A DNA stretch of 64,000 bases from Alphaproteobacteria bacterium (GCA_964291215.2 OZ219791.1:2048001-2112000); one strand, 5' to 3'; shown: positions 35,614 through 61,636, counted from the first letter of the stretch. Numbers and translations are program-made. Notes: generated by a model not told the origin, from the sequence alone.

Positions 35614-35829
35614 GGGCGCGGCGCCGGGGCGAAGCCTGAAAAACGTTTCTGATACTGACAACCACTCTTCGCCAGATCCGGGCCGACGATGACGATGTCT
35701 TTTCGGCGGAAATCGGCAGACATGGCGGAAGGTCGAGTGGCTCGATAGTACGGCACCCTCCGCACGGGCGCAATGTCGAGCGCCGGCCCGGGCAGGTGTT
35801 TCCCACGCTGCATTCAATTTTGCTGTCTT

Positions 35830-36420: not shown

Positions 36421-36462
36421 GGACGGCCGAAACCGGCGCCCCGGACGAGATGGCGATCGCGA

Positions 36463-36512
36463 GTACGCATCGTCGCCTGGAACTGCGGCGGCGCGTTTCA
36501 TAGGAGGCTTGA
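36463..36512 (+). pseudogene. N-terminal stub of an endonuclease/exonuclease/phosphatase (EEP) gene
   Basis: VRIVAWNCGGAFHRR ends at the IS1634 left TIR. Confidence 0.55.
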
Positions 36513-39209: not shown

Positions 39210-39557
39210 CGGGACATGGATATCGAGGCCACCTTCCGTTCATTGAAATCCGAGCCCGGATTGCGCCCGGCCAGCGCATCGCCGCCCACCTGTTGATCGC
39301 CGTGCTCGTCGCGGTGCATCTAATCCCCGCGCGGGGCATCGACAAGTGCTGGACATCAATCCGCGAGAGCATGCGGAACCAGGGTCACCACGCGCCTGCG
39401 CGCATTGATCGTCAACCGACAGGACACGCACCGCCGGGGTCGCCGAAATCTCCTCGGCGGCTGGCGTCGAACCCACCGCACAAGGAGCCGCCTCACAAGC
39501 TGACAGAATTCAACAGAATGTAGTGCCATGTTGCAATCGGCCGACAAAAAAATCGTG

Positions 39558-42283: not shown

Positions 42284-42854
42284 ATGAACCCCGAGGCAGC
42301 GGAAAACTACGCCAGCAACCGGCTCACCATTACGCGCCAGATCACCTTCACCTCGGCCCTGAAGGGAGCCGACGGCAAGAACCGCCGCTGCGTCATCGAC
42401 GTGACGCTGGCCGTCAACGGCATCCTGGTGGTGACCGCCGAACTCAAGAACCTGCTGACCAAACAGCGTGCCGCCGATGCGATTCGCCAATACCGGAATG
42501 ATCACGACGGGCGCGATCTACTCTTCGCTTTCAAGAAACGTGCGCTGATTCACTTTGCCGTGGACCCGGACGAAGCGTGGATGACAACCCGGCTGGAAGG
42601 CAAGGAGACCCGTTTCCTGTCCTTCAACCGGGGGAACGACCACGGAGCGGACAACCCGCCAGTCGAAGGCGACTGGAAGACCCATTACCTGTGGGACGAA
42701 GTACTGCAGGCCGGCAACCTGCTGGAAATCCTGCAACGCTTCATGCACTTGGAAGTGAAGAAAACGCAGGTCAAGACCGACAAGGGCGCGCGCACCGTGC
42801 GATAGGAGACGATGACCTTTCCGCGCTATCACCAACTCGACGCGGTGCAGAAAC
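42284..42854 (+). pseudogene. hsdR: type I restriction enzyme HsdR internal fragment
   Basis: IDVTLAVNG...[35 protein letters not shown]; cut by IS1380 and IS630. Confidence 0.85.
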
Positions 42855-43559
42855 TTGTCGCACACGACGATCCGGCGCATCTGGGGCGCGTTCGGCCTGC
42901 AGCCGCACCGCTGCAAGACCTTCAAGCTCTCCAGCGACCCGCACTTCGTGGACAAGGTACGGGACATCGTCGGGCTCTATCTGTCGCCGCCGGACCGCGC
43001 GCTGGTGCTGTGTGTCGACGAGAAAAGCCAGGCCCTCGACCGCACCCAGCCGATGCTGCCGGCTGAGCGGCGCACCCACGATTGCAAACGCAACGGCACC
43101 ACCTCGCTGTTTGCCGCGCTCGCCACCGGCGCGGTCATCGGCAAGTGCTATCGCCGCCACCGGGCCAGGTAGTTCCTCGACTTCCTCAAGCAGATCGACC
43201 GCTCCGTCCTCGAGGATCCATATCGTCATGGACAACTATGCCACCCACAAAACCGCGGCGGTCAAAGCCTGGCTGGCCCGGCAACCGTACTGGCACGTCC
43301 ACTTCATGCCGACACCCGACCCCTGGCTCAACCAGGTCGAGCGCTGGTTCGCCGAGTTGACCCGCAAGCAGTTGCAGCGGGGCGTCCAACGCTCGACCCT
43401 GCAACTCGAAACCGACATCCGGGCCTTCATCGAAACCCACAACGAAAATCCCAAGCCCTTCAAGTGGACCAGATCAGCCGACGAAATCCTCGCCGCCGTC
43501 AAGCACTTCTGTTTCCACGTCGGACAAAATTTATGCCACGAACTTTAGATTCAGGTGAC
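42855..43559 (+). mobile_element. IS630-family element, 5' truncated and degenerate
   Basis: [51 protein letters not shown]; end GATTCAGGTGAC followed by TA. Confidence 0.88.
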
Positions 43560-43734
43560 TAGGACTGCAGGGTCGGTAGATCCGGATTGTCGTTCTTTTA
43601 CTGGCTGTCGAGCTTGTTGCGCAGCGGTGCCCAACTTCGTCGGCGCGCTTCTTCCACGGCCTGGACCAGCGCCTCGGGCGGCGCACGGGCTGCGTGGAAG
43701 CGCTTCAGGTAGTGCGCCGGGCGGTAGATGTAGA

Positions 43735-44412
43735 GCGGCCTCACACTCGTCCAGCCGGGCAAGCAGGTCGTGCTGCGCTGGAAGGCGATCAAGGCCGGCC
43801 CCTTCATCTACCACTGCGCGCCGGGCGGAATCATGATTCCCTACCATGCGCATGAACGGCGCGGTCATGGTGCTGCCGAGGGGTGGGCTGACGGACCGGC
43901 ATGACAATCCCGTCCACTAAGACAAGGTCTATTATGTCGGCGAGCAGGACTTCTACGTGCCGCGGAACGCCGAAGGCGATTATATACAGCACGAGTCTCA
44001 CAGCGACGCGATGGCCGACATGCTGGACGTGACGCTCACCCATGTCGTGATGAACGGCAAGGTCGGCGATCTCACCGGCGACAATGCGCTGACGGCCACG
44101 GTAGGCCAATCGGTACTGTTCGTCCACTCCCAGGCCAACCGCGATTCGAGGCCGCATCTCATCGGCGACCATGTCTGGAAGGAGGGCTCGTTCATCGATC
44201 CGCCGATGGAAGGCCTCGAGACCTGGTTCATCCGGGGCGGCTCGGCAGGCGCCGCACTCTACACCTTCCGGCAGCCGGGGGTGTATGTTTACCTCTCGCA
44301 CAACCTCATCGAGGCCGTGCAGCTGGGGGCGCTCGTCCATGTCGTGGTCGATGGCGACTGGGACGACGACCTGATGGCGCAGGTCCAGGCCCCCGGACTG
44401 ATTCTGGCATAG
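43735..44412 (+). pseudogene. nirK: copper nitrite reductase C-terminal remnant
   Basis: FIYHCAPGG...[52 protein letters not shown]; in-frame stop and frameshift. Confidence 0.85.
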
Positions 44413-44446
44413 GCGGGTCTGATGCGTCCTCCGCACTCACAGCGCT

Positions 44447-45579
44447 TCACCCTCGGCGAAGGCTCGAGTCGGCGACGGCAAAGTGGTTGTCCCAGCGGCG
44501 AGACACCGGAAAACCGGTCGGGAACGGACGGAACTTGCGTGCGTGCGCGTCCAGCAGGAACACTCCGCCCTGCCCGCTGCTCACGAGGAACGCCCCGGCT
44601 CTTGTCGCCGGCGCCAGGCCGCAGCCGTCGGCCAGCCGGGCCGAATAGAGGAATCCGCCGTCAACGCCGTCCCAGACGGTCACGATATGGCCGCGCGGGG
44701 CGGAGACGGCGAAGGTGCGGCCCGCCCTGTCGAAACAGACATCGCCGCAATACTGCCGCATGGCGCGGAGGACCGAAGGCGGCGCCTCCAGCGGTCGGAG
44801 CGGGCCCCCGGCCCGGCAAAGCGCGACGAGCGGCACGCGGTCCCCTCTCGGCCCTTCATATTGCATTGCGACCGCAACCCGGCCTTCCCTGCCGACAGAC
44901 AGATGGCGGATGCTCAACTGGCGAAGACCGGCCCCGAGACGCTGCTTTCGCAGCAACTCGCCCGTCTTGCGGTCGATGAAGCAGAGCGACGGCTCCATCG
45001 CCGGCAGATTGAGCTTCGCCCTCGGATAGTCGGGATGGGTGTGGATACCGCCATTGGCGACAACCAGCGTCCGTCCGTCCGCCAGCAGTCGGATGTCATG
45101 GGGCCCCAGGCCGCCGGAAGGGAGTTCGCCCAGCCGCCGGAAGCCGCTCCGGGCGCCATATATGCCGACGACGCCGCGACCCGCATCGAAGTCGTTCTCG
45201 GTGACGTATAACAGCCGCCCGGAAGGGTCGAAGATACCGTGGCCCTGGAAGCGCCGGTCCTGCGGGGGCGCGAACAGGCGGGACACCGCACCTCGGTCGA
45301 TATCCAGAACCAGTGCGAATTCCCCCGGACGGCGGGCGAAATGCACCGCCAGACGGCCGTCCGGGCGCACGGCGAAGGCGTGCCCGCGGGCCGGCAGCTT
45401 GGAGTCCAGCAGCATGTCTCCGGCTTGCGAAAAGCCGCCGACCCGATACCCACCGGGCGCCACCGCGCCGGCGGAGAGGTAGCAGCGTTCCATCCGTGCC
45501 GCGCGGGCGCCACCCGGCCAGAAGCCGCCCCCAGGTTGCCGGCGAGCAACCGGAGCGCGCAGCGGCGGTCAATCGCCAT
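44447..45579 (-). CDS. DUF1513 family beta-propeller protein; twin-arginine-like leader out of frame with the body (ORF 44447-45493)
   Basis: RGHA, FARRPG, FQGHG, YVTEND, GPHD, VANGGIHTHP, LSIRHL, WDNH. Confidence 0.8.
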
Positions 45580-46660
45580 CGAGCGCGTTGAAGCCGATCG
45601 GCAGGCCGAGGGCCTTGGCCAGGCGGTTCCGCACGATCTGCCGGAGCGCCTGCACCTGGATCCGCAGCTTGTCCACCTTCTTGCGCTGCGCCGGGTCGGC
45701 CGCGGCGGCCTCCAGCGGCCCGTCGATCGACTTCGCCGTCGCCACGGTCGCGCGGAACCCCTTGTGAAGCAGCCTCTCCAGCTTGCGCCCGGAATTCGGG
45801 ATGAGTGCAGCGATACCCGGCTCGCCGCCACCGCCATACAGGTCCTGCAGCGCCTCGAGGTTCAGGACGACGTTTCGGAGCGACCGGCCGCTCAGGCGCG
45901 ACTCCGCCAGATGCTCGCGGACCTTATCCGCGCCCTTGCCGATGACGGGTGCGACTTTCAGATCGACGATGCGCTGCAGCCCGTCATGGAGGCTCTTGAG
46001 GAAGGCCCGCGACGCTTCACCGTGGCTCTCGAAATACGAGTTCTCGGGGTTGGTGAAGAGCGCGATGAACGGGCGTTCGCCCGTCCACCAGTCCCTGTCC
46101 ATCCCCTCCGCCATGTCCCGCATGTTGCCTGCAATGGCCTGGAGCAGGCGGCATCCTTCCGCCGACCCGCCCGGCCGGATTTTGGAGGACTCCGGACCCA
46201 AAAGCAGCGCTTCGGCCGCCATCAGGCCCTGGCCGGCCACGCTCCCCCTGCTGACGCGGGCTGGCGAGACGGTCTCCTCCGTCAGCAGCCGCGCGACAGC
46301 CTTGTCCACCTTCCCGCGCGCATCGGGCCAGAAATGGAACCGGTGGATGCGCATGAACAACTCAGCCGGACCGAACCGCAGATGCTCGACGGCCATCCAG
46401 GCGTCCATAAGGTCGTGGAACGCGGTTTCGGCCCGGGCAAAGGTCCCGGCTCCCGGCTTGGCGCAAAGTGCCCCGGCGGCGGCCTTGAAGTCCCTGGCCG
46501 CGGCCGCCAGCCGCACGTAACGGGGCCGCACATGGTTTTCAGCCAGCGCGGCATTGACCCGCTCGAAGGCCTCGGGTGGCGGCCTGTCGCCGGCGGCGGC
46601 AGGCACGCCAAATGCGAGAATCGCCAGAACCAGCGCCGGCAGAGCGATCACAGGCGGCAT
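45569..46660 (-). CDS. imelysin family protein
   Basis: FGPA, FWPDARG, VAGQGLMAAEALL, AESRLSG, C-terminal GFNALDGD. Confidence 0.9.
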   Translation of the reverse strand: MPPVIALPALVLAILAFGVPAAAGDRPPPEAFERVNAALAENHVRPRYVRLAAAARDFKAAAGALCAKPGAGTFARAETAFHDLMDAWMAVEHLRFGPAELFMRIHRFHFWPDARGKVDKAVARLLTEETVSPARVSRGSVAGQGLMAAEALLLGPESSKIRPGGSAEGCRLLQAIAGNMRDMAEGMDRDWWTGERPFIALFTNPENSYFESHGEASRAFLKSLHDGLQRIVDLKVAPVIGKGADKVREHLAESRLSGRSLRNVVLNLEALQDLYGGGGEPGIAALIPNSGRKLERLLHKGFRATVATAKSIDGPLEAAAADPAQRKKVDKLRIQVQALRQIVRNRLAKALGLPIGFNALDGD

Positions 46661-46683
46661 GGCGCACCTTCGTTTCCGTTACG

Positions 46684-48141
46684 TCAGAGCGAACGTAGAA
46701 ACGCGAGCAGCGCGTCCCGCTCTTCTTCGGTCATGTCTGCAACGCGCTGCTTCGCGGCCTCCGCCTCACCCCCGTGCCAGAGCACGGCCTCAAGGAGGCC
46801 GCGCGCGCGCCCGTCATGCAGGAAGAAGCTGTGGCCGTTCACGACTTCGGTAAGCCCGATGCCCCAGAGCGGCGCAGTGCGCCATTCGCGGCCCGTCGCT
46901 TCGCCTTCGGGCCGGTCGTCCGCCAGTCCCGGCCCCATGTCGTGCAGGAGCATGTCGGTATAGGGCCAGATCAGCTGGAAGGATTGCTCCGCTCCGATGG
47001 AATCACGGCGCGTCACGAATTTGGGTGTGTGGCAGGCCGTGCAGCCGGAGTCGTAGAACAGGCGCTTGCCCCGAAGCACCTGCGGGTCGTCCAGGTCGCG
47101 CCGGGCCGGCACGGCGAGGTTCCGGGAATAGAACATCAGCAGGTCGAACAGGGCATCCCCCGCCTCGACGCCCGGAACATCCTTGTCGCCGTGAGGAGCG
47201 TTGCGGCAGGCTTCCTGCCTCTGCGTACAATCGCCCCAGGGAACCGGATAGAGCGGCGTCGAGATACCAATGTCGCCGCGAAACGCCGCCGCGGCCTGCT
47301 GGACGAGCGTGGGCTGCCCGGCCTTCCAGCCGAACCGGCCCAGCATGAGTCTGTCGTGCTCGTCGCTCCACACTCGGTTCGGCCGCCCCGAAACACCGTC
47401 GCCGTCCCGGTCGTCCGGGTCCGCGCGGGCAAGGATGGCGTCTTCCGGTACCGCCTCCAGCAGGCCGACGCCGATCATCGGCGGGGCGGTGCGCGGAGAT
47501 ATCCGCAAATCCGGCGCGAGCGGGCCGTAGCGCAAGCCGGTCAGGCCGTATCGGGGCCGGCGCAGCGACACCGAGCCGCCATCGGCCAGTCTCACCGGGA
47601 TTTCCTCCCAGGCGGTCGTCATCCTGCCCTCGGCGGGCACGCCCTGCACGGAGTGGTTCTGGAGCTGGCCTCCATAGGACGGGTCCGGTTCCCTGCCGTC
47701 GGGTCCCGTGGACAGACGGAGCACCATCGATACCGCCCGATCGCCGGGCACGGGCGGACGACCACGTCCGTCCTTGACGTGGCAGCTCTGGCAGGAGCGC
47801 GCGTTGAACAACGGACCCAGCCCGTCGGACGACCGGGTCGAGCTCGGAGACGACACCCAGATCTTCACGAAGACGCCGTCGCCGACCTCGAAATCGAGCT
47901 TGCGCTCGAAGGACATATTCGCCGACGGGTGCGAAAAAGCGTCACGGTTCGGCGTCGCAAAGGAAGTCGCCGCGCCGCCGGGCCGCCGCTCATAGCGCTC
48001 GGGGGCGGTGAAATCGGTCGCAGGTCGTGTCACAGCCTCGATGCGCGCCCGCTCCGCGTCTCCACCGGACGATACCCCGGCGATTCCCGCGAACGGCAGG
48101 AGGATCGCAGCCGTCGCAACGGTATGACTGAACCTGTTCAT
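46684..48141 (-). CDS. di-heme oxidoreductase (DUF1111) family protein
   Basis: DGLGPLFNARSCQSCH, GRFGWKA, GCTACHTP, WRTAPLWG, LHDGRAR. Confidence 0.92.
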   Translation of the reverse strand: MNRFSHTVATAAILLPFAGIAGVSSGGDAERARIEAVTRPATDFTAPERYERRPGGAATSFATPNRDAFSHPSANMSFERKLDFEVGDGVFVKIWVSSPSSTRSSDGLGPLFNARSCQSCHVKDGRGRPPVPGDRAVSMVLRLSTGPDGREPDPSYGGQLQNHSVQGVPAEGRMTTAWEEIPVRLADGGSVSLRRPRYGLTGLRYGPLAPDLRISPRTAPPMIGVGLLEAVPEDAILARADPDDRDGDGVSGRPNRVWSDEHDRLMLGRFGWKAGQPTLVQQAAAAFRGDIGISTPLYPVPWGDCTQRQEACRNAPHGDKDVPGVEAGDALFDLLMFYSRNLAVPARRDLDDPQVLRGKRLFYDSGCTACHTPKFVTRRDSIGAEQSFQLIWPYTDMLLHDMGPGLADDRPEGEATGREWRTAPLWGIGLTEVVNGHSFFLHDGRARGLLEAVLWHGGEAEAAKQRVADMTEEERDALLAFLRSL

Positions 48142-48176
48142 CAAAAAATTTCCACACGGGGGTTGACAGTTTTAAT

Positions 48177-48195
48177 GATAATGATAATCATTAGC
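48177..48195. promoter_or_regulatory. Fur box in a divergent promoter
   Basis: GATAATGATAATCATTAGC matches 18/19 of the canonical box GATAATGATAATCATTATC; TTGACA at 48163-48168. Confidence 0.88.
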
Positions 48196-48225
48196 ACTTG
48201 CAACTAACGAGATTGGAGGGAGTTC

Positions 48226-49524
48226 ATGAAAAAGCGCGGAATGCTGGCTGCAACGTTCGGGGCCTGCCTTCTGGGATCGAGCCTGATCGCCGCGGTCGGC
48301 GGGCAAAGCAAGGCCGCGGCGGATGCCGGATCGCCCGAGGGCAAGGTGCTCGCGCACTATGCGGCGCTGGCGCATGCCGTCTATGAGGATTCGCTCATTA
48401 CCGCTCAGGCACTTCAGGCAGCGGTAGACAAGCTGATCGCCGCCCCGTCCGAAGACACGCTCGCCGCGGCGCGTGACGCCTGGCTCGTTTCCCGCGTGCC
48501 TTATCAGCAGAGCGAGGTCTATCGCTTCGGCAACGCCGTGGTGGACGACTGGGAAGGCAAGGTCAACGCCTGGCCGCTCGACGAAGGCCTGATCGACTAT
48601 GTCGATGCCGGCTACGGCGACTCGTCCGAGGAGAACCCCGGCTACACAGCGAATGTCGTTGCCAATGCGATGTTCACTTTCTCGGGCAAGCAAATCGACG
48701 CCTCTTTCATCGACGCCGCGTTGCTGGCCGACAGGCTTCATGAACTCGGCGGCGTCGAGGCGAATGTTGCGACCGGCTACCACGCCATCGAGTTCCTTCT
48801 CTGGGGCCAGGACCTGAACGGCACCGGGCCGGGCGCGCGGCCGGCGACGGATTTCGACACATCCGACTGCACCGGAGGCAATTGCGACCGCCGCGCCGCC
48901 TATCTCAAGGCTGCCGCCGACCTGCTGGTGCACGACCTCGCCTGGATGACGGCGCAGTGGACGGCCTACGGGCCCGCCACCAAGGCGCTTGTCGGCGGCG
49001 ACGCCGCAGAGGGTCTGGCGACCATCGTCACCGGCATGGGCAGCCTCTCCTACGGCGAGCTCGCCGGCGAGCGCATGAAGCTCGGCCTGTTGCTGCACGA
49101 TCCGGAAGAGGAGCATGACTGCTTCAGCGACAACACGCATAACTCGCATTACTACAACGCGCTGGGCATCCGGAACATCTATCTCGGCGAATACAGGCGG
49201 ATCGACAGCAGCGTGATGTCGGGCCCCGGCCTGTCCTCGCTAGTCGCGGCGGTTTCGCCCGAAGCCGACATGGCGCTGCGCGATCGTCTCGACGCCACGA
49301 TGGCGGCGATGGCCGAGCTGGTGAAGTCAGCCGAGAGCGGCGAGGCCTACGACCAGATGATCGGCGAGGACAATGCGGCCGGCAACAAACGGGTGCAGGC
49401 CGCCATAGACGGGCTCACCGCGCAGACCGACGCGATCACGAAAGCCGCATCGGCGCTCGGGCTCGCAAGCATTGAGTTCGAGGGTTCCGACAGTCTCGAC
49501 GACCCGGAGGCGGTCTTCCAGTGA
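48226..49524 (+). CDS. imelysin / iron-regulated protein A
   Basis: VNAWPLDEGLIDYV, ATGYHAIEFLLWGQD, EEEHDCFSDNTH. Confidence 0.92.
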   Translation: MKKRGMLAATFGACLLGSSLIAAVGGQSKAAADAGSPEGKVLAHYAALAHAVYEDSLITAQALQAAVDKLIAAPSEDTLAAARDAWLVSRVPYQQSEVYRFGNAVVDDWEGKVNAWPLDEGLIDYVDAGYGDSSEENPGYTANVVANAMFTFSGKQIDASFIDAALLADRLHELGGVEANVATGYHAIEFLLWGQDLNGTGPGARPATDFDTSDCTGGNCDRRAAYLKAAADLLVHDLAWMTAQWTAYGPATKALVGGDAAEGLATIVTGMGSLSYGELAGERMKLGLLLHDPEEEHDCFSDNTHNSHYYNALGIRNIYLGEYRRIDSSVMSGPGLSSLVAAVSPEADMALRDRLDATMAAMAELVKSAESGEAYDQMIGEDNAAGNKRVQAAIDGLTAQTDAITKAASALGLASIEFEGSDSLDDPEAVFQ

Positions 49525-49753
49525 TTCTCCGGCAGGGAAACGGCAGGGAAGACGCTCCTCCAGCCCACCTTGCCGCTGCATGGGCGGCGCAACCGCGCAG
49601 CGCCGCCCATGCACTTTCTATCTCAGAAGCGGCGCGCCTGTCGCCCGCATATCGGACCGTCGAACAGGAAAAGGGCAAAATCCGACCCTTGGCAGGGATA
49701 TTGCTCGTTATCCGAGTGTATCCGAAGAAAACGTGATGAAGGAGATACAACGC

Positions 49754-51001
49754 ATGAGAATGCACAGAATATTGGCAGCGGCGGCGCTCGGCACCTGTTT
49801 GCTGTCCGGCAGCGCTTGGGCCCAGAACGCGACCGACGCCCGCCTCGAAACGCTTGAAAAGCGCATCTACCAGCTTGAGGAGCGCCTCGCCGAACGCGAC
49901 GCGGCCATGATGGAGAAGGAGCAGGCGCTCGCGAAGCTGAAGGCAAAGGTGGCGGTGCAGGAGCAGACCGCAGCCAACATCCACACTCAGGCGGAGAAAG
50001 CAGTCGCCGACGGCGGCATAGGCGGTGCCATAGAGGTCGAGATCGTCCAGGACAGTCCTTATGAGGGTAAGTCCACATCTGCCAGCGAAACGGCTACTGT
50101 CGATGTCGCCATCGAGGCTGAAATCAGCGACGCCGCCAGCGCCGAAGTCGTCCTGACGATGGGCGACGAAAGCGAGATCGAGGTCGATACCGCGGCCTTC
50201 ACGATCGGCGTGGGGGACACGCCCGTTTCGTTCACCGCCGGCCTGTTCACCCTGCCCTTTGCCGACTTCGGCACGGAACTCATCTCCGACCCGATGGGGC
50301 TCGAAATGGGCGAGGCCGGCGAGAGCGCGCTGCAGCTCTCCTTCGAGTCTGAAGCGGGCCTCGCCGCTTCGGCTTACGTCTTCAACGGCGATGTCGATTA
50401 CAAGGAAAAGGACCGTATCGGCGATTTCGGCGTCCAGCTGGACTATGGGATCGAGCTCGGCGGCATAGCCTTCAACGCCGGCGTCGGCTGGATCAACGAT
50501 GTCGCCGAGGCGAACGCGCTGGAAGGGACGACGGAGGACGGCAAGAAAGCGGCCGGCCTCGCGATTTCCGGCGGCCTGGGCTTCGGCCCCGTCTCTTTCA
50601 CCGGCCACTACATGACCGTGCGCGACAGGCTCAACGGGCTCGAATGGAACGTCAAGCCGGATGCGACGGAATCGGGCAGTGGGGAGGCAGCCCAGCCTTC
50701 GGCCTATGGCGTAGAAGCGGCTTACGCCTTGGGGATGGGCGACCGGGAAGTCGTATTCGCCGCCGGCTGGCAGCGTACCCGAGAAGCGATCGGCCTGGAA
50801 ATGCCCGAGAGCCGCATCCTGTTCGGTTTCTCCACCGAACTCGTCGAGGGCGTCGGCGTCGCGCTCGAATATGCTCGCCACAACGATTACGGTGCGAGCG
50901 CCTGCACAGGCAGGGAAGACGATGAGGGAGGATATGCTCCGGCCTGCGGCACCGGCAAGAGCGGCAGCACCGTCACCCTGCAGCTCGCCGCCGAGTTCTA
51001 G
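49754..51001 (+). CDS. LbtU-like outer-membrane porin
   Basis: Signal peptide, coiled-coil, then beta-barrel (GAIEVE, LISDPMGLEMGE) ending in QLAAEF; lies in the iron module. Confidence 0.75.
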   Translation: MRMHRILAAAALGTCLLSGSAWAQNATDARLETLEKRIYQLEERLAERDAAMMEKEQALAKLKAKVAVQEQTAANIHTQAEKAVADGGIGGAIEVEIVQDSPYEGKSTSASETATVDVAIEAEISDAASAEVVLTMGDESEIEVDTAAFTIGVGDTPVSFTAGLFTLPFADFGTELISDPMGLEMGEAGESALQLSFESEAGLAASAYVFNGDVDYKEKDRIGDFGVQLDYGIELGGIAFNAGVGWINDVAEANALEGTTEDGKKAAGLAISGGLGFGPVSFTGHYMTVRDRLNGLEWNVKPDATESGSGEAAQPSAYGVEAAYALGMGDREVVFAAGWQRTREAIGLEMPESRILFGFSTELVEGVGVALEYARHNDYGASACTGREDDEGGYAPACGTGKSGSTVTLQLAAEF

Positions 51002-51602
51002 GGAGGGGCCGCCGGCTCCGATCTGTAGGCCCCGCCATGTTCACCTTGAGAAATATCGACTCGAAGACCCTCGCCGCCTTGGTCGTCTCCGCGTCGCGCT
51101 CCTACCGGACGCAGTCCTCGTCGAAACAAGACCCGCCTTCCGAAAGCACTGCCGTGGATGCGGACCGTCCGCGCCTAATGCACCGACAGCGGCCCGCCGG
51201 CGCGACTGCGTCGCTAGCGGGACGGAATGGGGTGACGGAGCCGCCTCCTACCTAGCCGCGAATATGTGGCCGAGCGCATGCGACGGGGCCAGAAGGTCCT
51301 CACGCGTGTGCCGGTCGAAGACCTCCAGGAAGGCTTGCAGGGCCTCGTCGAGAACCCGGCTCAACACGCAGAGCCCCGCGATCGGGCAGCCGAGGGCGGC
51401 CATGTCGTGCTCACCTTCAGCGGCGACATGATCTCGCTCTCCGCGCTCTCGGGCACCGACAATGGCGCGCATATAATCGACCTTGCCAACGCAATTAGGG
51501 CGCGTGAGTTTGGCATGGCGATGTTGGGATCGCTCGGCTGATCCCGTTTATGCGGCGCGCCTGGAGGCGTAGTCGGTGCAGTTGTTGTCGTTGGCCGGGG
51601 TA

Positions 51603-51880
51603 TCAGCATCGCTCATGAGGCCTGCCCATGCGCGGTCGAAGCGTCCGGATTTGATGAGGGCGCGTACGGTAAGGACGGCCTGCCCGCCGGCGATGCGCCA
51701 TCGCATGCCGGAGCGCTTCATCCTCTGTGTGACGAGGGTTTTGTTTGCGGCCTCGACGACGCCGGAACCGATGGCGATGCCCCGGTCGCTGAGGTGGCGG
51801 TATCACATGCGCTTGCGGTGCTTGCGGAAGAAGGCGAGTTCGCGCTCGATGGCGGCGCGCGCGGTGCGGTTCCGCCCTTT
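51603..51880 (-). pseudogene. ISKra4-family transposase C-terminal fragment
   Basis: FFRKHRKRM.YR...IGSGVVEAANKTLVTQRMKRSGMRW. Confidence 0.8.
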
Positions 51881-53184
51881 CAACCAACCATGATTAACTC
51901 GTCGTTCATGAGGCCTTATATAGTGGCCTATGAGAATTGGTTTTCGACATCTGTCCACGACGACGGTTGATTGGCTGAAGGCGGCGTCGGTTGCCGAGAG
52001 CAGCACGCCCTGGCGCAGGGATTGTGCGAGCGCGAGGACTGGCGCAACGCGAAGGGCGAGCTGTGTCTTGCCGCGTGCGGCCCTGCCTGATCTTGCCTCG
52101 GCGCTCGGCATCGTCCTTCCTGCACCAGGGCCTCATGGCCTCGACACCCTTGAGCGGGACTGTCCCGACAAGCCACTCGCATGTTCTCCGGAGGAGCTTG
52201 GAGAGGTCACCGTGGAGCCGGTCGGCGAGGACAGGCGCCTGGCGATGATGGCGACCTGGCATCCCGAGGGCGAGGCGCCCGGATGAGCTACCGGATCACC
52301 TCGTCGCGCTACGGCCGCCTCGGCGGCCTGGTGTTCCGTGCGGCCAATTGGCATCAGAAGGCGCGCGACGACTTCTGGTCCCGGGGAGCGCGTGACGTCC
52401 ACCTCGGCAAGGTCGTCAACAACGCTCGCTTGCTGATACTTCCGTCGGTGAATGTTCCGGAGCTGGCCTTCCACGTCCTGGCCTGCCGGCGGCTTGCTGC
52501 GGACTGAGAAGTGACGCCGGTTCTGGCCTGCGCCCATGTGAGCCCCGAAGACACCGGCACGAGCTACAGGGCGGCAGGCCGGGAGCGTTGTGAGAAGATG
52601 ACCTCGGGTCGACCTCCCGGGGCCACCGGCCAGGGCGCACCGTGTGGATGAAGCCCCTGGCTTGGCAAGACGTGTTGTGGCGGGAGCGTGTCATGGGCCA
52701 GGCCGCACCCCTTGTCGATGATGGCGACCGGGCGATGAGGGAGTACAGCCGCAGCAACCACGGTGACGTGCGCATCCGCGACCGCCTTGTCACCATGGGC
52801 GTGGAACGATCGTCCCGGAGAGATCCTGCCGATGATCTTCCCCGGCGAGGCGGAACAGAAGGCGGCCTGCCGCCTGTTGTCGAACCCCAAGGTGACGATG
52901 GACCATATCCTCGAGGGGCATCAGGAAGCGATGATAGAGCGCTGCCGTCCGCAGCGCCGGGTCCTTGCCATCCAGGACACGACGTTCCTGAATTGCAATG
53001 GCCTGGAGGCGGGTCTTGTCGACATCGGCGGCTCGGGTGCCCTTGGCATTGCGGCCCATGCCGGGGTCGCCTTCACCGAAGGCGGCTGTGCCCTCGGCCT
53101 GTTCCATCTCGACGCCGACTTCCGTCTCGATCCGGATCACGAGAAGGGCGAGGAGAACGACAAGGAGAGCCGGCGCTGGCCTTT
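51881..53184 (+). mobile_element. DUF4338-IS4 transposase fusion, 5' part, degenerate
   Basis: MRIGFRHL...VDWLK, WHQKARD, VVNNARLLILP, GDVRIRDRL, VLAIQDTTFLN. Confidence 0.8.
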
Positions 53185-54050
53185 CAACCTGACACTATTA
53201 AGTCCATTGATTTCTGCATATCGTGTTCCCGCATTTTTCTGTGATGCTCGACGAAGTAGAGGAGGAGTTGGTATCCCTGCCAGAGTTTCTCGGTTCCCGG
53301 CAGGGGTTGGCGTTTGCCGGGGATGAAGCCTGCCACGCGTGCGACCTTGATGGCGAAGACTTCGATGGTCGGTTCGGGATCGGGAGGTCCACGAGGTTGG
53401 TGCTGTTTAGCGATCTTGTAGTTGTTCAGGGCCGTGATCTCGTCGCGGTGGACGATGCGGCTGGCCGGCGTGCGAGACGCTCGACGGTCATGACGCGGCA
53501 TGCGGTGATCGCGTCGAAGGCCGGACACTTCCTCAGGTCGTCGGCCTGGCCGGTCCTCGATCCGTGTGCCGACCTTCAGGGCCTTGAAGTATTCTTCAAT
53601 CAGCCATCGCCTTTCGTGGAAGGAGACGGTGTCGAGGGCAGCGGTGACGTCGCCTTCGGTGGTGAGCAGCATCCAGTCGAGAGGATCTGCCGGTAGGTCG
53701 GGTTCCGTGACGTGTACGGCCATCGTGGAGAGCGGCGGCGTTCCCCGGGGCTTCCGGTCCGGCGGCGCAAGGTCGACCCTTGCCGTGCGGCCTTCGAGGC
53801 CCTTGCGCTCCTTGCGGCGGCGCGGCCCTCCGCAGGCTGCGATGTCGATCGGCCTGGTCGCGATGCACGGCTCATCGGCCATGTGGTCCCGAAGGTCCCG
53901 TTGCGCGCCCGTTGCGGTGACCACGCGGCGGCATGTCGAGCGCCTGACGCGCACCAGCAGACCAGCTCCGGGCCAGCAGGTCCCGGATGTCGCCTTCACG
54001 GATCATCAGCACTTTTGTCGAGGGACAGGCCAGTTCCACGGCCCTGTCGT
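53185..54050 (-). mobile_element. IS4-family transposase, 3' part
   Basis: LDWMLLTTE, RRWLIEEYFKALKVG, VARVAGF...PGTEKLWQG; end CAACCTGACACTATTAAG. Confidence 0.85.
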
Positions 54051-54059
54051 ACCCGCCAG

Positions 54060-54900
54060 CGCCGCGCGCAGAAGCGGGAAAGCGGGTTACAGGCGGCCGA
54101 GCGCATACGACAGATCAGCGTCTTGTCGTCAGGACCTGAGGGAGGAGCCGGATGCGAACAGCGCTCGTCCGGATCTGGTGTGCCAGGCGAACTGGCAGAA
54201 GGCAGGGGGTGGAAGTCCCCCGGAACAAAGGAGTAACCAAACCGCGTTTCTCCGCGAGCCGTGCGTCGGTTCCCGCGAGGGGGCAGGCGAAGCGTCGGTA
54301 GCGGGGCTGATGGGCACCGAAAAGACGATGATCCGGGGTGCCGAGGTTTTCGGATCGGTCGAAGGCAACATCGCAGGCATCGATTTGGTGAGATGCCGGC
54401 GCGCCTCGCGGTGTCAGAGAATCCGTCCGTACTTCTTCTGTCGGGACCCTGGGAGATCTTCAAGCTGTCCCGCCTGTCGGGACCGCGCAGGGAAAGGAGA
54501 AAGCCGAAGCCTGTGATGAACGGTTTGAAGAAGGGGCCCTGTGAAGGCGGCGAACAAGGGAGCTTCTGCAAAGTTGGCGGAGGAAAGGGCCTCGACCAAG
54601 GGGAATTCGGGACACCAAAGCACGCGCCGAACGCAGTGTCGGGTGCCACAGGCGGCGGACCGGATACGGAAAGCCGCAGAGGTTCGACTGGAAGCGACTG
54701 GAGCGCATGACCGAGATTCTTTGGCCGCGCGCAACAATCCGCCACCCATGGCCGGACCAGCGGTTTGCCGTCAAGCACCCGAGGTAGGAGCCGGATGGAC
54801 TGGCGTCCATGTCCGGATCTGTGCGGGGAGTGTGCAGTAATGCGCATTCCTACCGTAACGGCGGGGGGGGGGGGGGGGGAACCCGGTTCCCTACCGCGAT
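54060..54900 (+). mobile_element. group II intron A (3' part, ORF deleted), host of a nested intron
   Basis: IEP stubs QAAERIRQ and DQRLVVRT*; DV GAGCCGGATGCG...CGCTCGTCCGGATC (54145-54175); DVI resumes at 54860 and ends CCCTACCGCGAT. Confidence 0.8.
54178..54859 (+). mobile_element. group II intron B, ORF-less, 682 nt, class E-like
   Basis: 5' GTGTG; GGTGCCGA...GAAGGCAACA; GGGAAAGG; DV GAGCCGGATGGAC...TCCATGTCCGGATC; DVI ending CCTACCGTAAC; IEP stubs VPQAADRIRKAA and HPWPDQRFAVKHPR*. Confidence 0.88.
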
Positions 54901-55311: not shown

Positions 55312-56364
55312 ATGCAGTTCGACCTCGAAGCGGATTTGGTCAAGGAGAAGGCGAAAGCTCTGGGCGCAGATCTGGTTGGCATAGTTGGCGCCGACACGCT
55401 GAACGAGTTTCCGCCCGATCCCAAGTGGCCTCAGACTCCGGAGCGAATTTCACCCTTCGCGCGGAGCGTTGTCGTGGTTGCAAAGAGGATTCCGATCGGC
55501 GCCTTCAGGGCGAAGACCAATGTCCCGGTCCAGTATATCGACATGCTTGTCCTGCGCGCCATGGACAGGGCTGCCTACCGGCTCTCGCGCTGGATGGAGG
55601 ATCAGGGGTTCCCCTCGTTCGTGACGGCTGCGCAGGAGACCGACTGGAGCTACAAGAAGGCGAGTTACGGCCGCCTCAGCACCAGGCATCTCGGAATCGA
55701 GGCCGGTCTCGGGACCTTCGGGCTTGAGGTCAACATCCTTACCCCTGAATTCGGCCCGCGTATCTATCTCACCGGCATTCTGACGGAGGCGCGCATCGCG
55801 GCTGACGAGCGTATTACCGAACAGGTCTGCATCGGCGAGTCCTGCAGCCGCTGCCTGTATTCCTGTCCGCCCGATGCAGTGCGCCATTTCGGGATTGACA
55901 AGCGGGGCTGCGCCACCGAGGCGCAGGAATTCGGGTTTTCGACGATCATGAAATTCTGGCAGCACTTCATTGGAGAGCCGCCGGAACGTCGCCGGGAACT
56001 CCTCCGGGACCGGGAGATATTCGGTTTCTGGCAGGGCCTGCTGCGCGTCGTCGGTTCCTTCGGCGACTGCCCGAGATGCCTAGCCGTGTGTCCCGTCGGC
56101 AACGACTATCATGCGCATCTCGCCGACATCCAGAAGCGGATTCCCGAAAAGACGCCGGAGAAGGTTGTCAAGGCCAAGGCCTTCAAGGAGGCGCGCAAGA
56201 GCGGAGATCCGGTCGACGGGCTGAACGACTGGAATGTGAGGTGGGTGGGGCCCGACGGGTACAAGGGAATTGTCGCCCGTCAGCTGCAGGCGTTCAAGCG
56301 AACGCAGCAGGAAAAGGAACACGAGGCTGAGCAGCGCCGGCAGCTCGAGACAACCGGAGAGTAG
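55312..56364 (+). CDS. QueG/reductive-dehalogenase-like 4Fe-4S protein 1
   Basis: AKALGADLVGI, STRHLGIEAGLGTFG, TPEFGPR, CIGESCSRCLYSCP, CPRCLAVCPVG. Confidence 0.8.
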   Translation: MQFDLEADLVKEKAKALGADLVGIVGADTLNEFPPDPKWPQTPERISPFARSVVVVAKRIPIGAFRAKTNVPVQYIDMLVLRAMDRAAYRLSRWMEDQGFPSFVTAAQETDWSYKKASYGRLSTRHLGIEAGLGTFGLEVNILTPEFGPRIYLTGILTEARIAADERITEQVCIGESCSRCLYSCPPDAVRHFGIDKRGCATEAQEFGFSTIMKFWQHFIGEPPERRRELLRDREIFGFWQGLLRVVGSFGDCPRCLAVCPVGNDYHAHLADIQKRIPEKTPEKVVKAKAFKEARKSGDPVDGLNDWNVRWVGPDGYKGIVARQLQAFKRTQQEKEHEAEQRRQLETTGE

Positions 56365-56370
56365 TTCGAC

Positions 56371-57369
56371 ATGGTAGCCGTATTCCGGGAACCGGTTTCT
56401 GCGGAAGAGATCAAGCAGCAGGCAAGGGACTTCGGCGCCGACCTTGTTGGCATTGCCGACGGGGCAGCACTGGATGACAACCCTGCGCCCGGGTTCGCCA
56501 ACCGGCCCTCGGACATCACCGAGCATGACAACGGGCGCATCATCGTCCTGGCCAAGCATTACGGGAGCGGAACGACGAGGATCGCCCGCTGGGACGAGCG
56601 CCACAAGTATTACAATGACGAGCTGACGCTGACGATGCTGGAAGAGGCGTCGCTCAATCTCGTCTACTGGCTTGAAGACAGGGGGTATCCGGCAATCATC
56701 GTTCCGCCTACCCACACCGACCCCTGGGCCTATCAGAACGATCCGGGCGAACATCTCACGACCCTGCTGTCGCTAAATCACGCCGCGGTCGAGGCCGGCC
56801 TCGGTTCCTTGGGCCTGAACCTGCAGCTTCTCACTCCCGAATTCGGTCCGAGGGTCATGCTTTCGGCAGTAATGTCCAGCATCGATTGTGAGGTCGACGG
56901 CATTGTTCCAGACAGGCTGTGCCGGGGTCCGGAATGCGGGCGCTGCCTCAGCGCCTGTCCGGGCGATGTCGTTGGCCATTGGGATCGCGACTGGCCGGCG
57001 TGCGACCGTTATCGCTCTCCTCACGGTTTCGCCCAGTTGACCGACCACCTTCAGAACATCTTCGACGAACCCGACTCGGGGCGCAAACTCGAACTACTCC
57101 GCTCCGAACATTCGTTCAACCTGTGGCAGAGCATATTGCGTGGCGCAGGCGTCATAACCGGTTGTCGCCGCTGTCAGGATGTGTGTCCGGTCGGCGAGGA
57201 CTACGCGCGTTTCCTGCAGGACGCTCTCGAAGAGATTCCGGAAGACACACCGGAAAAGGCGTTTCGTCTCGCAGCGATGTGCCGGGCCGAGGCTGCAGGC
57301 GACATGCCGCCCGCCCACGACGCCCAGCGCCGCTGGCTCGGCATCTCGGCCGGCGGATCGGCGGGATGA
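56371..57369 (+). CDS. QueG/reductive-dehalogenase-like 4Fe-4S protein 2
   Basis: ARDFGADLVGIAD, SLNHAAVEAGLG, TPEFGPR, CRGPECGRCLSACP, CRRCQDVCPVG. Confidence 0.8.
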   Translation: MVAVFREPVSAEEIKQQARDFGADLVGIADGAALDDNPAPGFANRPSDITEHDNGRIIVLAKHYGSGTTRIARWDERHKYYNDELTLTMLEEASLNLVYWLEDRGYPAIIVPPTHTDPWAYQNDPGEHLTTLLSLNHAAVEAGLGSLGLNLQLLTPEFGPRVMLSAVMSSIDCEVDGIVPDRLCRGPECGRCLSACPGDVVGHWDRDWPACDRYRSPHGFAQLTDHLQNIFDEPDSGRKLELLRSEHSFNLWQSILRGAGVITGCRRCQDVCPVGEDYARFLQDALEEIPEDTPEKAFRLAAMCRAEAAGDMPPAHDAQRRWLGISAGGSAG

Positions 57370-58676
57370 TTGCGGGCAGAGCCGAACTCCCTCTCGGGTT
57401 GCCGCGCTCGCACGGGGAGATCGAGGAGATCCAGAGGGCGCGGAAACCTGTCGCCTTCGAGAACGCCAGACGTTCCGTTTTCTGGAAGCACAGGCTCGAA
57501 GGAATCAATCCGGCCAAGCTCGACGATCCCGAAGAGTGGGCCAAGATCCCGATCCTCGACAAGGATCAGTTGCGCGGCCTGTCGACCGAGCGGTTCTACA
57601 GCGAGTTCTGCACCACGCCGCAGAACGAGATCTGCGAATACTGGCGTTCGGGCGGCAGCACAGGCAGACCCCTCTTCTATCCCAAGACATACGAGGATAT
57701 CCGCTACAACATGGTCGGGTTCACGCGTACGTTCGAGTGCAGCGGAACCGGTATGGGCAATCTCGCCCATATCTCATTTCCGCTTGGCATTCATCCGGCG
57801 GGCCACATGTGGGCGCGGGCCGCCCGCATCATGGGTATCGGGGTGGTCTGGGCTGGTTCCGGTGTCGCCTTGCCGTCGGCCACGCAGCTGGAGCTGATTC
57901 GCAGCATGAAACCGACCCTGTGGATGGGCATGTCGAGCTACGGCCTCCATCTCGCCAACCTTGCGGCCGCCGAAGGCGCCGGCCTCCAGGACAACTCGGT
58001 GGACCGAATAATGTGCACCGCGGAACCCGTCTCGGCGGCCAAGCGCGCCAAGCTGGAGCGGGACTGGGGCGCTGATGTCTTCGACTGCTTCGGGATGACC
58101 GAATGCAGCATGCTTGGGGCCGAGAGCGACAAGCGGGACGGTTTCCACGTCTGGACCGATCTGGCCCTGATCGAGATACTCGACGAGAAGACGCTGAAAC
58201 CGGTGGACGAAGGCAAACCCGGCCTTTTGGTGATGACGCCGCTGTTCAGCAACAATGGTGCCGCATTCCTGCGCTGGAATTCCGGTGACGTGGTGACATG
58301 GAAACGCGAAGGCGCAACCGGATCCGATTTCGCGGTCTTCCCCGTGATCCGCCATACCCATCGCACAGCCGGGTTCTTCAAGATCCGGGGGGTGAACATC
58401 AATCACCAGGAATTCGAGGATTTCCTGTTCGAGATCGAGGAAGTCAACGACTTCAAGGCCGAGCTTGTCACGGCAACTGAAGGAACCGACAGCTTTGCCC
58501 TGTCGGTCGAGATCCGGCCCGGCGTTGATCGCGAGGCCATAGCCGCAAGGGTCGCGCAACAGACCAAGGCGACTTTCGAGGTGACGCCGGAAATCAGCAT
58601 CCTGGCTCCAGGGGCGCTTGCGGCGGAATTCGAGAACAGCGTAAAGGCCCCGCGTTTCGCCGACCGGCGCAAATAG
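57366..58676 (+). CDS. phenylacetate-CoA ligase (PaaK) family protein
   Basis: IPILDKDQLR, RSGGSTGRP, CTAEP, FGMTE, KIRGVNI; ATG 57366 overlaps the upstream stop. Confidence 0.85.
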   Translation: MIAGRAELPLGLPRSHGEIEEIQRARKPVAFENARRSVFWKHRLEGINPAKLDDPEEWAKIPILDKDQLRGLSTERFYSEFCTTPQNEICEYWRSGGSTGRPLFYPKTYEDIRYNMVGFTRTFECSGTGMGNLAHISFPLGIHPAGHMWARAARIMGIGVVWAGSGVALPSATQLELIRSMKPTLWMGMSSYGLHLANLAAAEGAGLQDNSVDRIMCTAEPVSAAKRAKLERDWGADVFDCFGMTECSMLGAESDKRDGFHVWTDLALIEILDEKTLKPVDEGKPGLLVMTPLFSNNGAAFLRWNSGDVVTWKREGATGSDFAVFPVIRHTHRTAGFFKIRGVNINHQEFEDFLFEIEEVNDFKAELVTATEGTDSFALSVEIRPGVDREAIAARVAQQTKATFEVTPEISILAPGALAAEFENSVKAPRFADRRK

Positions 58677-59232: not shown

Positions 59233-59661
59233 TCAGATTCCAGCCTGCAGTCCGGCGGCCTCGATTCCGGCCACGGCTGCCGCCTCGTCGTTGTCCGAAG
59301 TGTCGCCGCTGATGCCAACGGCGCCGACCACCTCGTCCCCGTCCTTGATCAGGACGCCGCCGGGAACCGGCACAAGACGTCCGTTGGATGCGCCTACCAG
59401 CGCTACACCGAAATGCGGTCGCTCCAGGACCCGATCATTGAGGGCGCGGGAGGATATTCCCATGCCGACGGCGCCAAACGCCTTGCCGGTCGCAATCTGC
59501 GGCCGCAGCGCGGCCCCCGGCCCGTCTTCGCGGGCAAATGCCTTGAGGTTGCCACCGTCGTCGACGACAGCGACAGTTAGCGGCTTGAGGTCCATTTCCC
59601 TGCCCCTCACCAGCGCCTGCCTGACGATCGTGTCCGCCTGATCGAGCGTGAGTCCTGCCAT
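59233..59661 (-). CDS. GlcG/HbpS (PduO-C) heme/cobalamin-binding protein
   Basis: VAVVDDGG, IATGKA, PGGVLI, GAVGISG. Confidence 0.9.
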   Translation of the reverse strand: MAGLTLDQADTIVRQALVRGREMDLKPLTVAVVDDGGNLKAFAREDGPGAALRPQIATGKAFGAVGMGISSRALNDRVLERPHFGVALVGASNGRLVPVPGGVLIKDGDEVVGAVGISGDTSDNDEAAAVAGIEAAGLQAGI

Positions 59662-59953: not shown

Positions 59954-60694
59954 GTGGAATACCGGAACCCGAATGAGGTCTCGGGCGACTACAAGGAAAT
60001 GCTTGTCCGCCTGATGACCCGCCAGATCTACGCCGAGACGGCGACCGCCGAGGTCTTCGGACGGGCCATATCGTCGGCGCCGAACTGGCGCGAAAAGGAA
60101 CTGGCAGCCGAGTTTGCAGCCGAAGAGGCGCGCCACAGCCGCGGATTGTTCAATCTGTTGACCGATCTCGACGAAGATCCCGAGGCAATCATCGCAGGAC
60201 GTCCGGACGCCGGCGATTTCTGGGGCATTGATCTCGACAACTGGCTTGACATCGCGGTGTTCAATTTCACCGTGGACCGCGCCGGAAGCCATCAGATCAT
60301 GGAATACCGCGAGTCGAGCTATGTTCCTTGGGCCGACAGCCAGGAAGAGGTGCTGGCGGACGAGGAGGACCACTACGACAACGGCGTCGAGAACCTCAAG
60401 GAGTTCGCCAAGGACCCCGAAAAGCTGGCTGAATTCCAGGCGGTGTTTGATCGTGTGCTGCCGAACTGCATCAAGCGTGCCTTCGGCCGTCTCGAAGGGC
60501 CCGACAACGATTTCTGCCTTGAGCACGGCCTCAAGCGCAACAAGACCGAGGCCATCGTCAACCGGTATCTTGAGGAAATGCGCGGTCATATGGACGGAAC
60601 TGGTCTGACATTTCCGCCGCTGACAGCGTTCGACGCCATCAAGTGCGAGCTCGCCGACAGCACCCGGGACATCCTTCTGTCGCTGCAGCGCTGA
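59954..60694 (+). CDS. PaaA/PaaC-family ferritin-like di-iron protein
   Basis: AP..REK, EEARH, VDRAG, SSYVPWA, DEEDHY, GLKR motifs. Confidence 0.75.
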   Translation: MEYRNPNEVSGDYKEMLVRLMTRQIYAETATAEVFGRAISSAPNWREKELAAEFAAEEARHSRGLFNLLTDLDEDPEAIIAGRPDAGDFWGIDLDNWLDIAVFNFTVDRAGSHQIMEYRESSYVPWADSQEEVLADEEDHYDNGVENLKEFAKDPEKLAEFQAVFDRVLPNCIKRAFGRLEGPDNDFCLEHGLKRNKTEAIVNRYLEEMRGHMDGTGLTFPPLTAFDAIKCELADSTRDILLSLQR

Positions 60695-60817
60695 ATCCCG
60701 TTCCAATTCCCGTACGCATGCGCGGCAGGGCCGTCCGCATGTGTACGCGGTCTTTCCGACCGGCCATAGCCGCCGCGCCTGCTGCCCTTTCCGGAAAATC
60801 TCTACGGAGCACCGAAG

Positions 60818-61636
60818 ATGATTACCGAGTCGAACGACGTGATCCTCGACCACGATTTCAAGGCCGTGAAAGTCGGGATCGCCGGGCAGATATTGACGAT
60901 GACCCTCAACCGGCCCGAGCGGCTGAACACCTTCAATGAGGACATGAAGGAGGATTTCCGCTGGCTCGAGCGCCGCATCGAGGCAAATGACGACATTCGG
61001 GTCATGATCATCAATGCCGAGGGGGAAAAGGCGTTCGGCGCTGGCGCCGATGTCTCCTGGTTCGAGCAGGATTTCCTTACCGAGCGGTTTCGCATCGAAT
61101 ATCGGTGGATTCACGACTTCTTCGACCGCCTTGAGCGCATCGAGATACCGGTCATCGCCGCGATTCAGGGCATCTGCGCCTGCGGCGGGCTGGAACTTGC
61201 GATGTCGTGTGACTTCCGGGTCGCGACCTCCGACGCTCGTTTCGGGTTCACCGAGGGCAATATCAATCTCATACCCGGCTCGGGCGGCTGCTCGCGGCTT
61301 GTCGGAATGATCGGGCCGGGCTGGGCCAAGGAACTGGTCCTAGCCGGCGAGTTCATCGATGCGGAGAGGGCGCAGCAGATCGGTCTCGTGACACGTATCG
61401 TTTCGCGTGAGGAACTGCAGTCCGAAGCGCGGGCGCTCGCCGAGAATCTGGTGGCCAAGGCGCCTGGTGCGCTTGGTCTCGCCAAGGCGATTCTCAACAC
61501 CTGCCAGAATATCGACAGCGCCTCGGGGCGGGTTCTCGAGCGCATCGGCCAGTCAGTGCTGATCAGGTCCGACGACCACAAGGAGGGCGTGCGAGCATTC
61601 CGCGAGAAACGTCGGCCAAACTACAGTGGCCGCTGA
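60818..61636 (+). CDS. enoyl-CoA hydratase/isomerase family protein
   Basis: LNRPERLN, AFGAGAD, GGLELAMSCDFR, PGSGG, EGVRAFREKR. Confidence 0.92.
   Translation: MITESNDVILDHDFKAVKVGIAGQILTMTLNRPERLNTFNEDMKEDFRWLERRIEANDDIRVMIINAEGEKAFGAGADVSWFEQDFLTERFRIEYRWIHDFFDRLERIEIPVIAAIQGICACGGLELAMSCDFRVATSDARFGFTEGNINLIPGSGGCSRLVGMIGPGWAKELVLAGEFIDAERAQQIGLVTRIVSREELQSEARALAENLVAKAPGALGLAKAILNTCQNIDSASGRVLERIGQSVLIRSDDHKEGVRAFREKRRPNYSGR

Follow-up and report, generated by a model that had tools for sequence, protein, structure and literature searches.

Background

What would a cobalamin-dependent reductase do beside an acid-activating ligase? This question is raised by a 64,000-nucleotide (nt) stretch of DNA from an alphaproteobacterium (GCA_964291215.2, OZ219791.1:2048001-2112000; hereafter the window), which carries two tandem paralogues, A and B, related to the epoxyqueuosine reductase QueG and to the reductive dehalogenases (RdhA), followed by a PaaK-like ligase gene, L. 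To our knowledge, the only functions described for the fold of A and B are tRNA deoxygenation, dehalogenation of free substrates and trimming of cobalamin. No description of the A-B-L module was found in a literature search that included the accessible part of PMC13101508, most subscription papers and supplements lying outside its scope. We propose that the module serves in the reductive dehalogenation of aroyl-coenzyme A (CoA) thioesters, a reading to which we assign a probability of about 45%.

Structure of the locus

All three reading frames are intact in the window (Table 1). Six nucleotides separate A from B (TAG-TTCGAC-ATG), and the start codon of L lies within the stop codon of B in an ATGA overlap, so that the tandem, ligase-overlapping arrangement read in an earlier note on this DNA is borne out. 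A and B align over 318 columns (35% identity, E 6e-63), and both carry the segment H-x(4)-AGLG...TPEFGPR and eight cysteines, at residues 173, 178, 181, 185, 200, 253, 256 and 260 of A and 184, 189, 192, 196, 211, 265, 268 and 272 of B. The cysteines, the first motif of which is CX4CX2CX3CP, map onto the two-cluster scheme of QueG, in which the eight-cysteine motif corresponds to two [4Fe-4S] clusters according to the accessible part of PMC5175355. The enzyme had been supposed to be cytoplasmic, with neither a twin-arginine translocation (TAT) leader nor rdhB, and this held: none of 110 A and 49 B sequences showed a TAT-like motif, no stretch of transmembrane strength was seen in A, B or L, and there is no rdhB anchor gene at the locus nor space for one between the three genes. 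A promoter and terminator scan gave results at chance level, and the lack of a cobalamin riboswitch in the window genome among the 150 of 542 candidates scored is uninformative.

Table 1. Positions of the module and of two neighbouring features in the window (aa, amino acids)
Feature	Position	Strand	Length	Description
Subunit A	55312-56364	+	350 aa	QueG/RdhA-superfamily fold; two predicted [4Fe-4S] clusters; R125 equivalent to QueG Arg141
Subunit B	56371-57369	+	332 aa	paralogue of A (35%); eight Cys; without Arg at the Arg141 site
Ligase L	57366-58676	+	436 aa	PaaK-like, adenylate-forming; a separate subfamily
GlcG-like gene	59233-59661	-		converges on L
Formate-dehydrogenase-like genes	start 61837			

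Relationship to QueG and RdhA

Against the QueG model TIGR00276, A scored 44 bits and B 30.1 bits (cut-off, 200 bits), in model positions 129-207 only; against the RdhA model TIGR02486 they scored 21.6 and 16.4 bits (cut-off, 160 bits). The window genome has a true queG at C2:2347245 (432 bits), separate from the trio and adjoined by genes that read from sequence as tgt and queA, and a true queG is present in 17 of 19 other genomes with the A-B pair (AB genomes). In a quick, midpoint-rooted tree of 79 sequences, with supports from the Shimodaira-Hasegawa-like approximate likelihood ratio test (SH-aLRT), A, B, a further paralogue termed C, QueG and RdhA each formed one group, and A, B and one unassigned sequence made up a branch with a support of 97, apart from QueG plus RdhA. 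By these comparisons A and B are neither QueG nor RdhA and form a branch of their own, which upholds their earlier separation from true QueG.

Database labels for A and B proteins read QueG, ferredoxin or hypothetical, JGI and NCBI using 'epoxyqueuosine reductase QueG', and the nearest ESM Atlas clusters are labelled 'hypothetical' or Fer4 only. Many of these labels would make A and B redundant QueG isoenzymes, and QueG is the best PDB sequence match of both; with scores so far below the cut-off, a separate branch, a distinct true queG beside tgt- and queA-like genes here and in nearly all AB genomes, and a C-terminal region of QueG that has no match in A or B, this is scarcely credible, and the module proteins are widely mislabelled as QueG. 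Other proteins labelled QueG or left unnamed (P0161, P0177, P0202 and about 20 others) are single chains of 725-835 aa with several QueG-like repeats; those included in the tree formed a separate branch.

Conservation and gene fusions

Two sets of loci were assembled, with no 95% nucleotide overlap between them: the first came from a word scan of GTDB genomes (30 loci) and the second from an even sample of 400 Alphaproteobacteria, which added 19 AB genomes from 13 families. One locus in each set stops before B. In the 47 informative loci that remain, B lies directly after A in 47 and L follows B in 43, once across an 890-nt gap; the three-gene linkage on which the earlier note had staked its reading is thus conserved. 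One of the four AB genomes without an adjoining L has an L homologue elsewhere. A metagenome scan with a fusion query returned one spurious match and two split-gene loci, one of which has AB without L while the other ends early.

Single chains in which an A half precedes a B half make up 17 clusters at 90% identity. Mapped on the tree, fusion or its absence switches 6-7 times, some unfused sequences having been scored without their genomic context. Because such natural fusions exist, A and B are likely the subunits of an undescribed two-subunit enzyme, as had been suspected from the window. Two genomes hold three extra, divergent A-B pairs, each beside a different adenosine monophosphate (AMP)-forming ligase and an acyl-CoA dehydrogenase, which argues that the tie is to acid activation and not to one particular ligase; one of these three pairs has an RdhA gene in between, and in G261:C92 an RdhA gene lies directly behind B.

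The module occurs in about 5% of the even alphaproteobacterial sample and is usually 60-85% identical across families, a spread and degree of identity that suggest a module under selection in uncultured bacteria rich in dehalogenase genes. No AB pair was found in a phylum-level sample of 400 other genomes, but those listed are very complete genomes from well-sampled families, and we read the result as patchiness rather than absence. A plasmid search returned only two matches, both QueG. Among the Rhizobiales, strains GAS191, GAS113 and GAS188 carry A.

Residue asymmetry and predicted fold

All eight cluster cysteines, Ser123 and Arg125 are invariant in A (127/127 sequences). Arg125 aligns with QueG Arg141, which blocks the lower face of cobalamin according to the accessible part of PMC5175355, whereas Arg occupies this site in 0 of 66 B sequences. 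The eight cysteines are complete in 59 of the 66 B sequences; four others have substitutions and three are fragments or frameshifted. In four fused B halves, three of the cobalamin-proximal cluster's four cysteines are gone and the distal four are kept; Asp stands in place of some lost B cysteines and could still serve as an iron ligand. This asymmetry suggests that A is likely the catalytic, cobalamin-binding half and B an accessory half with a structural, substrate-binding or electron-relay role. An accessory B would recall NpRdhA, which has a vestigial, cobalamin-free domain (PMC10463259, accessible part).

A is like QueG and unlike RdhA at Arg141 and Tyr168. The His106-Asp134 relay of QueG is not retained in register: in an HHalign comparison with B. 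thuringiensis QueG, the register of which is uncertain, no His was matched and a longer loop replaced the Asp134 loop. With neither this relay nor the Lys of RdhA kept, the active site would be of a new type.

The predicted model of A, with a predicted local distance difference test (pLDDT) score of 84, matched QueG (E 6.5e-10) and the RdhAs PceA and NpRdhA (E 1e-8 to 1e-5), followed by MMACHC, which shares the fold (Z about 10). The best of five models of an A-B fusion had a predicted template modelling score (pTM) of 0.81 and a mean pLDDT of 74 (58-66 for the other four); it aligned with QueG and PceA at Z 16-17.5, with a root-mean-square deviation (rmsd) of 2.4-3.6 Å in most comparisons over about 210 residues, and suggests that the two halves pack together. 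On these models, which show a nitroreductase-like corrinoid fold with a ferredoxin insert, A and B are predicted to share the cobalamin-reductase fold of QueG, PceA and NpRdhA, in line with the first assignment, and A probably binds a corrinoid, to judge from the fold and from Ser123 and Arg125.

The ligase and a sister paralogue

The PaaK models are the best match of L, which scores 116.5 bits with TIGR02155 (cut-off, 646 bits) and is above cut-off for PF00501 and PF14535. It has the P-loop, FGMTE, the adenine-binding Asp, RGxN and the catalytic Lys, together with the signature motifs PLGIHPxG and HRTAGFFK; the hinge reads HRTAGFFKxRG, not GRxDD, in all L-type sequences shown. Weaker matches were to models of F390 synthetase, BagE/FevW and FlxY, and the nearest solved structures are PaaK-type, mostly CoA ligases. 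These resemblances make L a likely aryl-CoA ligase. The window genome holds two more L-type ligases without AB (G000:C1:1059700 and C2:2204262; L032 and L033), 50% and 46% identical to L. One of these two is divergent from a fusion of a flavin adenine dinucleotide (FAD)-monooxygenase and a flavin oxidoreductase, which we take to be of the 2-aminobenzoyl-CoA type.

Paralogue C was found in 15 of 401 genomes, 13 of which are AB genomes; several Rhodospirillales loci have it next to A-B-L. After C comes a 110-residue domain, for which family matching gave only a helix-turn-helix-like lead, and an AMP-ligase is usually either joined to this domain in one chain or encoded next. In G073 and G369, C comes after RdhA and FcbA-like genes. 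The copy of the window genome (G000:C1:1362690-1365547; L031:9679-12581) has the 110-aa domain and a cyclohexanecarboxylate-type AMP-ligase. At L087:6597-10273 (G369:C16) there is a second kind of tandem pair: both members come from the C branch, and a 110-aa protein and a divergent L-type ligase accompany them, so that an association with a ligase is seen again in the sister branch.

Genomic context

An RdhA-type match was obtained in 8 of 11 AB genomes versus 21 of 239 others in an even 250-genome class sample (taken as G001-G250), and in 14 of 19 AB genomes versus 4 of 22 in a hand-picked set. In two loci, L026 and L030, homologues of 4-chlorobenzoyl-CoA dehalogenase (E 2e-93) and its ligase (E 3e-126; L030 proteins searched) form a co-directional cluster with the module. 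Other aromatic-acid genes beside it encode a Rieske oxygenase, indolepyruvate oxidoreductase, kynureninase and BenE, which suggests a link to the metabolism of benzoate, anthranilate and indole. A ribA-like gene is divergent in 14 of the 30 GTDB loci and absent from the 20 regions L065-L084. CobN is present in the window genome, and the recurring neighbours include no genes for cobalamin synthesis or uptake.

Elsewhere in the window genome, an FcbB-like (4-chlorobenzoyl-CoA dehalogenase-like) gene lies directly upstream of a gene for a single-domain, 446-aa NpRdhA-like dehalogenase (G000:C2:2812980-2815150; L100:8980-11149), and two further RdhA-like genes occur at other sites.

The earlier note had also cast the GlcG/HbpS-like protein as a cofactor partner and formate dehydrogenase as the electron donor. 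Neither role is sustained by the wider set of loci: the former gene occurs in 10 of the 30 GTDB loci and 0 of the 20 regions L065-L084, and the latter in just two of the 30, L001 and L010, and in 0 of the 20. A stand-alone PaaA/BoxB-like di-iron ferritin gene, without paaBCDE, and a crotonase gene lie at 59954-61636; the ferritin gene accompanies the trio in only 6 of the 30 loci and in none of the 20 regions.

Upstream of A, the reading frame is a nuclease-family fragment. A run of 17 G (54863-54879) lies within this endonuclease/exonuclease/phosphatase gene, which spans 140 aa here versus 238 aa in L001, and is possibly a homopolymer error or the mark of a broken gene. Between the ribA-like and nuclease genes, about 19 kb (35600-54800) are missing in L001, a 97%-identical relative; they hold an imelysin/di-haem/DUF1513 cluster of the iron-uptake type, a multicopper oxidase fragment and transposase-like remnants. 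The window also carries a type II locus of clustered regularly interspaced short palindromic repeats (CRISPR), with a 1046-aa Cas9 (RuvC III, HNH, alpha lobe; 15981-19118) and an array of about 17 repeats of 36 nt at a spacing of 66 nt (20488-21576).

Discussion

In the proposed pathway, L would activate a halogenated aromatic or heteroaromatic acid to its CoA thioester, and A and B, likely joined as a heterodimer in which A would probably hold cobalamin, would reductively remove the halogen in the cytoplasm. Electrons from a donor encoded outside the module would pass through the two [4Fe-4S] clusters of A to form cob(I)alamin, which Arg125 would shield from below in the manner of QueG Arg141. 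B would provide a partner surface, like the vestigial domain of NpRdhA, with CoA binding or electron relay as possible further roles. The ring would be activated by the thioester rather than by the ortho-phenol needed by NpRdhA-type enzymes, and the proton would come from a residue other than the Tyr-Lys pair of RdhA, with Tyr75, Asp77, Glu109 and Tyr152 of A as candidates.

Several observations weigh against dehalogenation. Kinship and habitat confound the co-occurrence of AB and RdhA, so that the counts are inflated; an RdhA match is lacking in 5 of 19 AB genomes, and AB in 21 of 29 RdhA genomes. Only two of the 401 genomes yielded an FcbB homologue (both have AB), the window shows no halogen gene close to the trio, and CobN is not clearly enriched (15/19 AB genomes versus 12/22). 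In three of the four ligase-less AB genomes, an L homologue was not found elsewhere. NpRdhA requires Lys488 for activity according to the accessible part of PMC7565698, and the Lys488/Arg305 position after GPR is Tyr152 in A (122/127) and Met, Ile, Leu or Val in B; the position of the RdhA proton donor Tyr426/Tyr246 is ambiguous, falling on Leu81/Leu87 by ungapped count and on Tyr81 of B by HHalign. The halves of the fusion model align in order with both NpRdhA domains, but at about 13 Å rmsd, so that the halves may be arranged differently, and the five models range in pLDDT from 58 to 74. The PaaA-like ferritin keeps an epoxide reading open for the lineage of the window.

The same architecture could act on a non-halide leaving group of a CoA-activated acid, such as an epoxide (arene oxide), an N-oxide, or a hydroxyl or amino group, which would be nearer to QueG chemistry. 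A is QueG-like rather than RdhA-like at Arg141 and Tyr168, QueG is the top fold match, the ferritin and crotonase genes lie downstream here, and neighbours of the anthranilate and tryptophan type need no halogen; this is a serious, though improbable, alternative, since His106 and Asp134 of QueG are out of register, the ferritin gene does not recur in regions L065-L084, and the links to RdhA and 4-chlorobenzoate genes would go unexplained. Another departure concerns the ligase. F390 synthetase and some PaaK-like biosynthetic ligases adenylate a hydroxyl group or form an amide, and if L did likewise, making no CoA ester, AB would reduce the product in a biosynthetic or cofactor-modifying route. 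That L falls far under every PaaK cut-off and also matches models of such enzymes, that its hinge departs from GRxDD and that a ribA-like gene is often divergent would all suit this idea; the preponderance of CoA ligases among the nearest solved structures, the retained RGxN motif and catalytic Lys, the acyl-CoA dehydrogenase that accompanies the replacement ligases and the absence of the ribA linkage from L065-L084 make it unlikely.

It is very unlikely that AB is no substrate reductase at all, being instead an Fe-S protein devoid of cobalamin or a pair that processes cobalamin in the manner of MMACHC/MMADHC. The fold of MMACHC is shared, the acid-base residues of QueG and RdhA are not cleanly kept, and the vestigial domain of NpRdhA shows a fold able to lose cobalamin (PMC10463259, accessible part); yet Ser123, Arg125 and both clusters are invariant in A, the recurring neighbours are without cobalamin synthesis or uptake genes, and the link to acid-activating ligases would have no explanation.

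If AB is a third kind of cobalamin/Fe-S reductase, as considered below, uncultured marine and soil bacteria could dehalogenate non-phenolic aromatic acids, AB could be the type of enzyme behind aerobic halobenzoyl-CoA reduction, and paralogue C, which always has a ligase of its own, would carry out another step of this metabolism. The module may fill a gap in the natural turnover of organohalogens, and for cobalamin chemistry a version of the fold linked to acid activation would be new.

Comparison with known systems

L resembles the PaaK family (TIGR02155; PDB 2y27, 6hdw, 6siw) in its P-loop, FGMTE, adenine-binding Asp, RGxN and catalytic Lys, and differs in its low score, its PLGIHPxG and HRTAGFFK motifs and the absence of a paaABCDE operon among its neighbours. 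With QueG (TIGR00276; PDB 5d08, 5t8y, 5d6s), A and B share the fold (Foldseek E 6.5e-10; Z 17), the eight-cysteine scheme and the lack of a TAT signal, and A alone shares the Ser-x-Arg under the corrin. They differ in an identity of about 21-25%, in the displaced His106/Asp134, in the unmatched RNA-binding C-terminal region, in some 52 residues between Cys200 and Cys253 of A versus 25 in QueG, and in being paired or fused paralogues in a ligase context while true queG stands apart.

The respiratory RdhAs (PceA; PDB 4uqu, 8q4h) have the core fold (Z 16-17.5) and the AGLG...PEFGP segment in common with AB and offer a dimeric precedent, whereas AB is without a TAT leader, an anchor gene or an Arg305 equivalent. 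Closer in habit are NpRdhA, JtRdhA and BhbA (PDB 4ras, 6zxu), which are cytoplasmic without TAT or RdhB, comprise two core-fold copies in unequal roles, as may hold for AB, and share genomes and at times clusters with the module. AB departs from them in its TIGR02486 scores (22 and 16 bits versus 160), in the absence of Lys488, in halves that usually both keep their clusters and in a predicted arrangement of halves off by 13 Å rmsd; the substrates described for the NpRdhA type in the accessible part of PMC10463259 are free ortho-halophenols, with no CoA step. CoA-dependent dehalogenation is carried out by unrelated folds, among them class I benzoyl-CoA reductase acting on halobenzoyl-CoA (PMC6922536, accessible part). 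As with the 4-chlorobenzoyl-CoA ligase/dehalogenase FcbAB and this reductase, the module would convert a halo-acid to its CoA ester before halide removal, and fcbAB homologues adjoin it in two loci, but the enzymes concerned, a crotonase-fold hydrolase and an ATP-driven reductase, are unrelated to A and B. Beside QueG and RdhA, AB may tentatively be seen as a third kind of cobalamin/Fe-S reductase, a somewhat doubtful proposal as yet: an asymmetric, often fused heterodimer acting on CoA-activated acids, in which a thioester would replace the ortho-phenol and a new residue would donate the proton.

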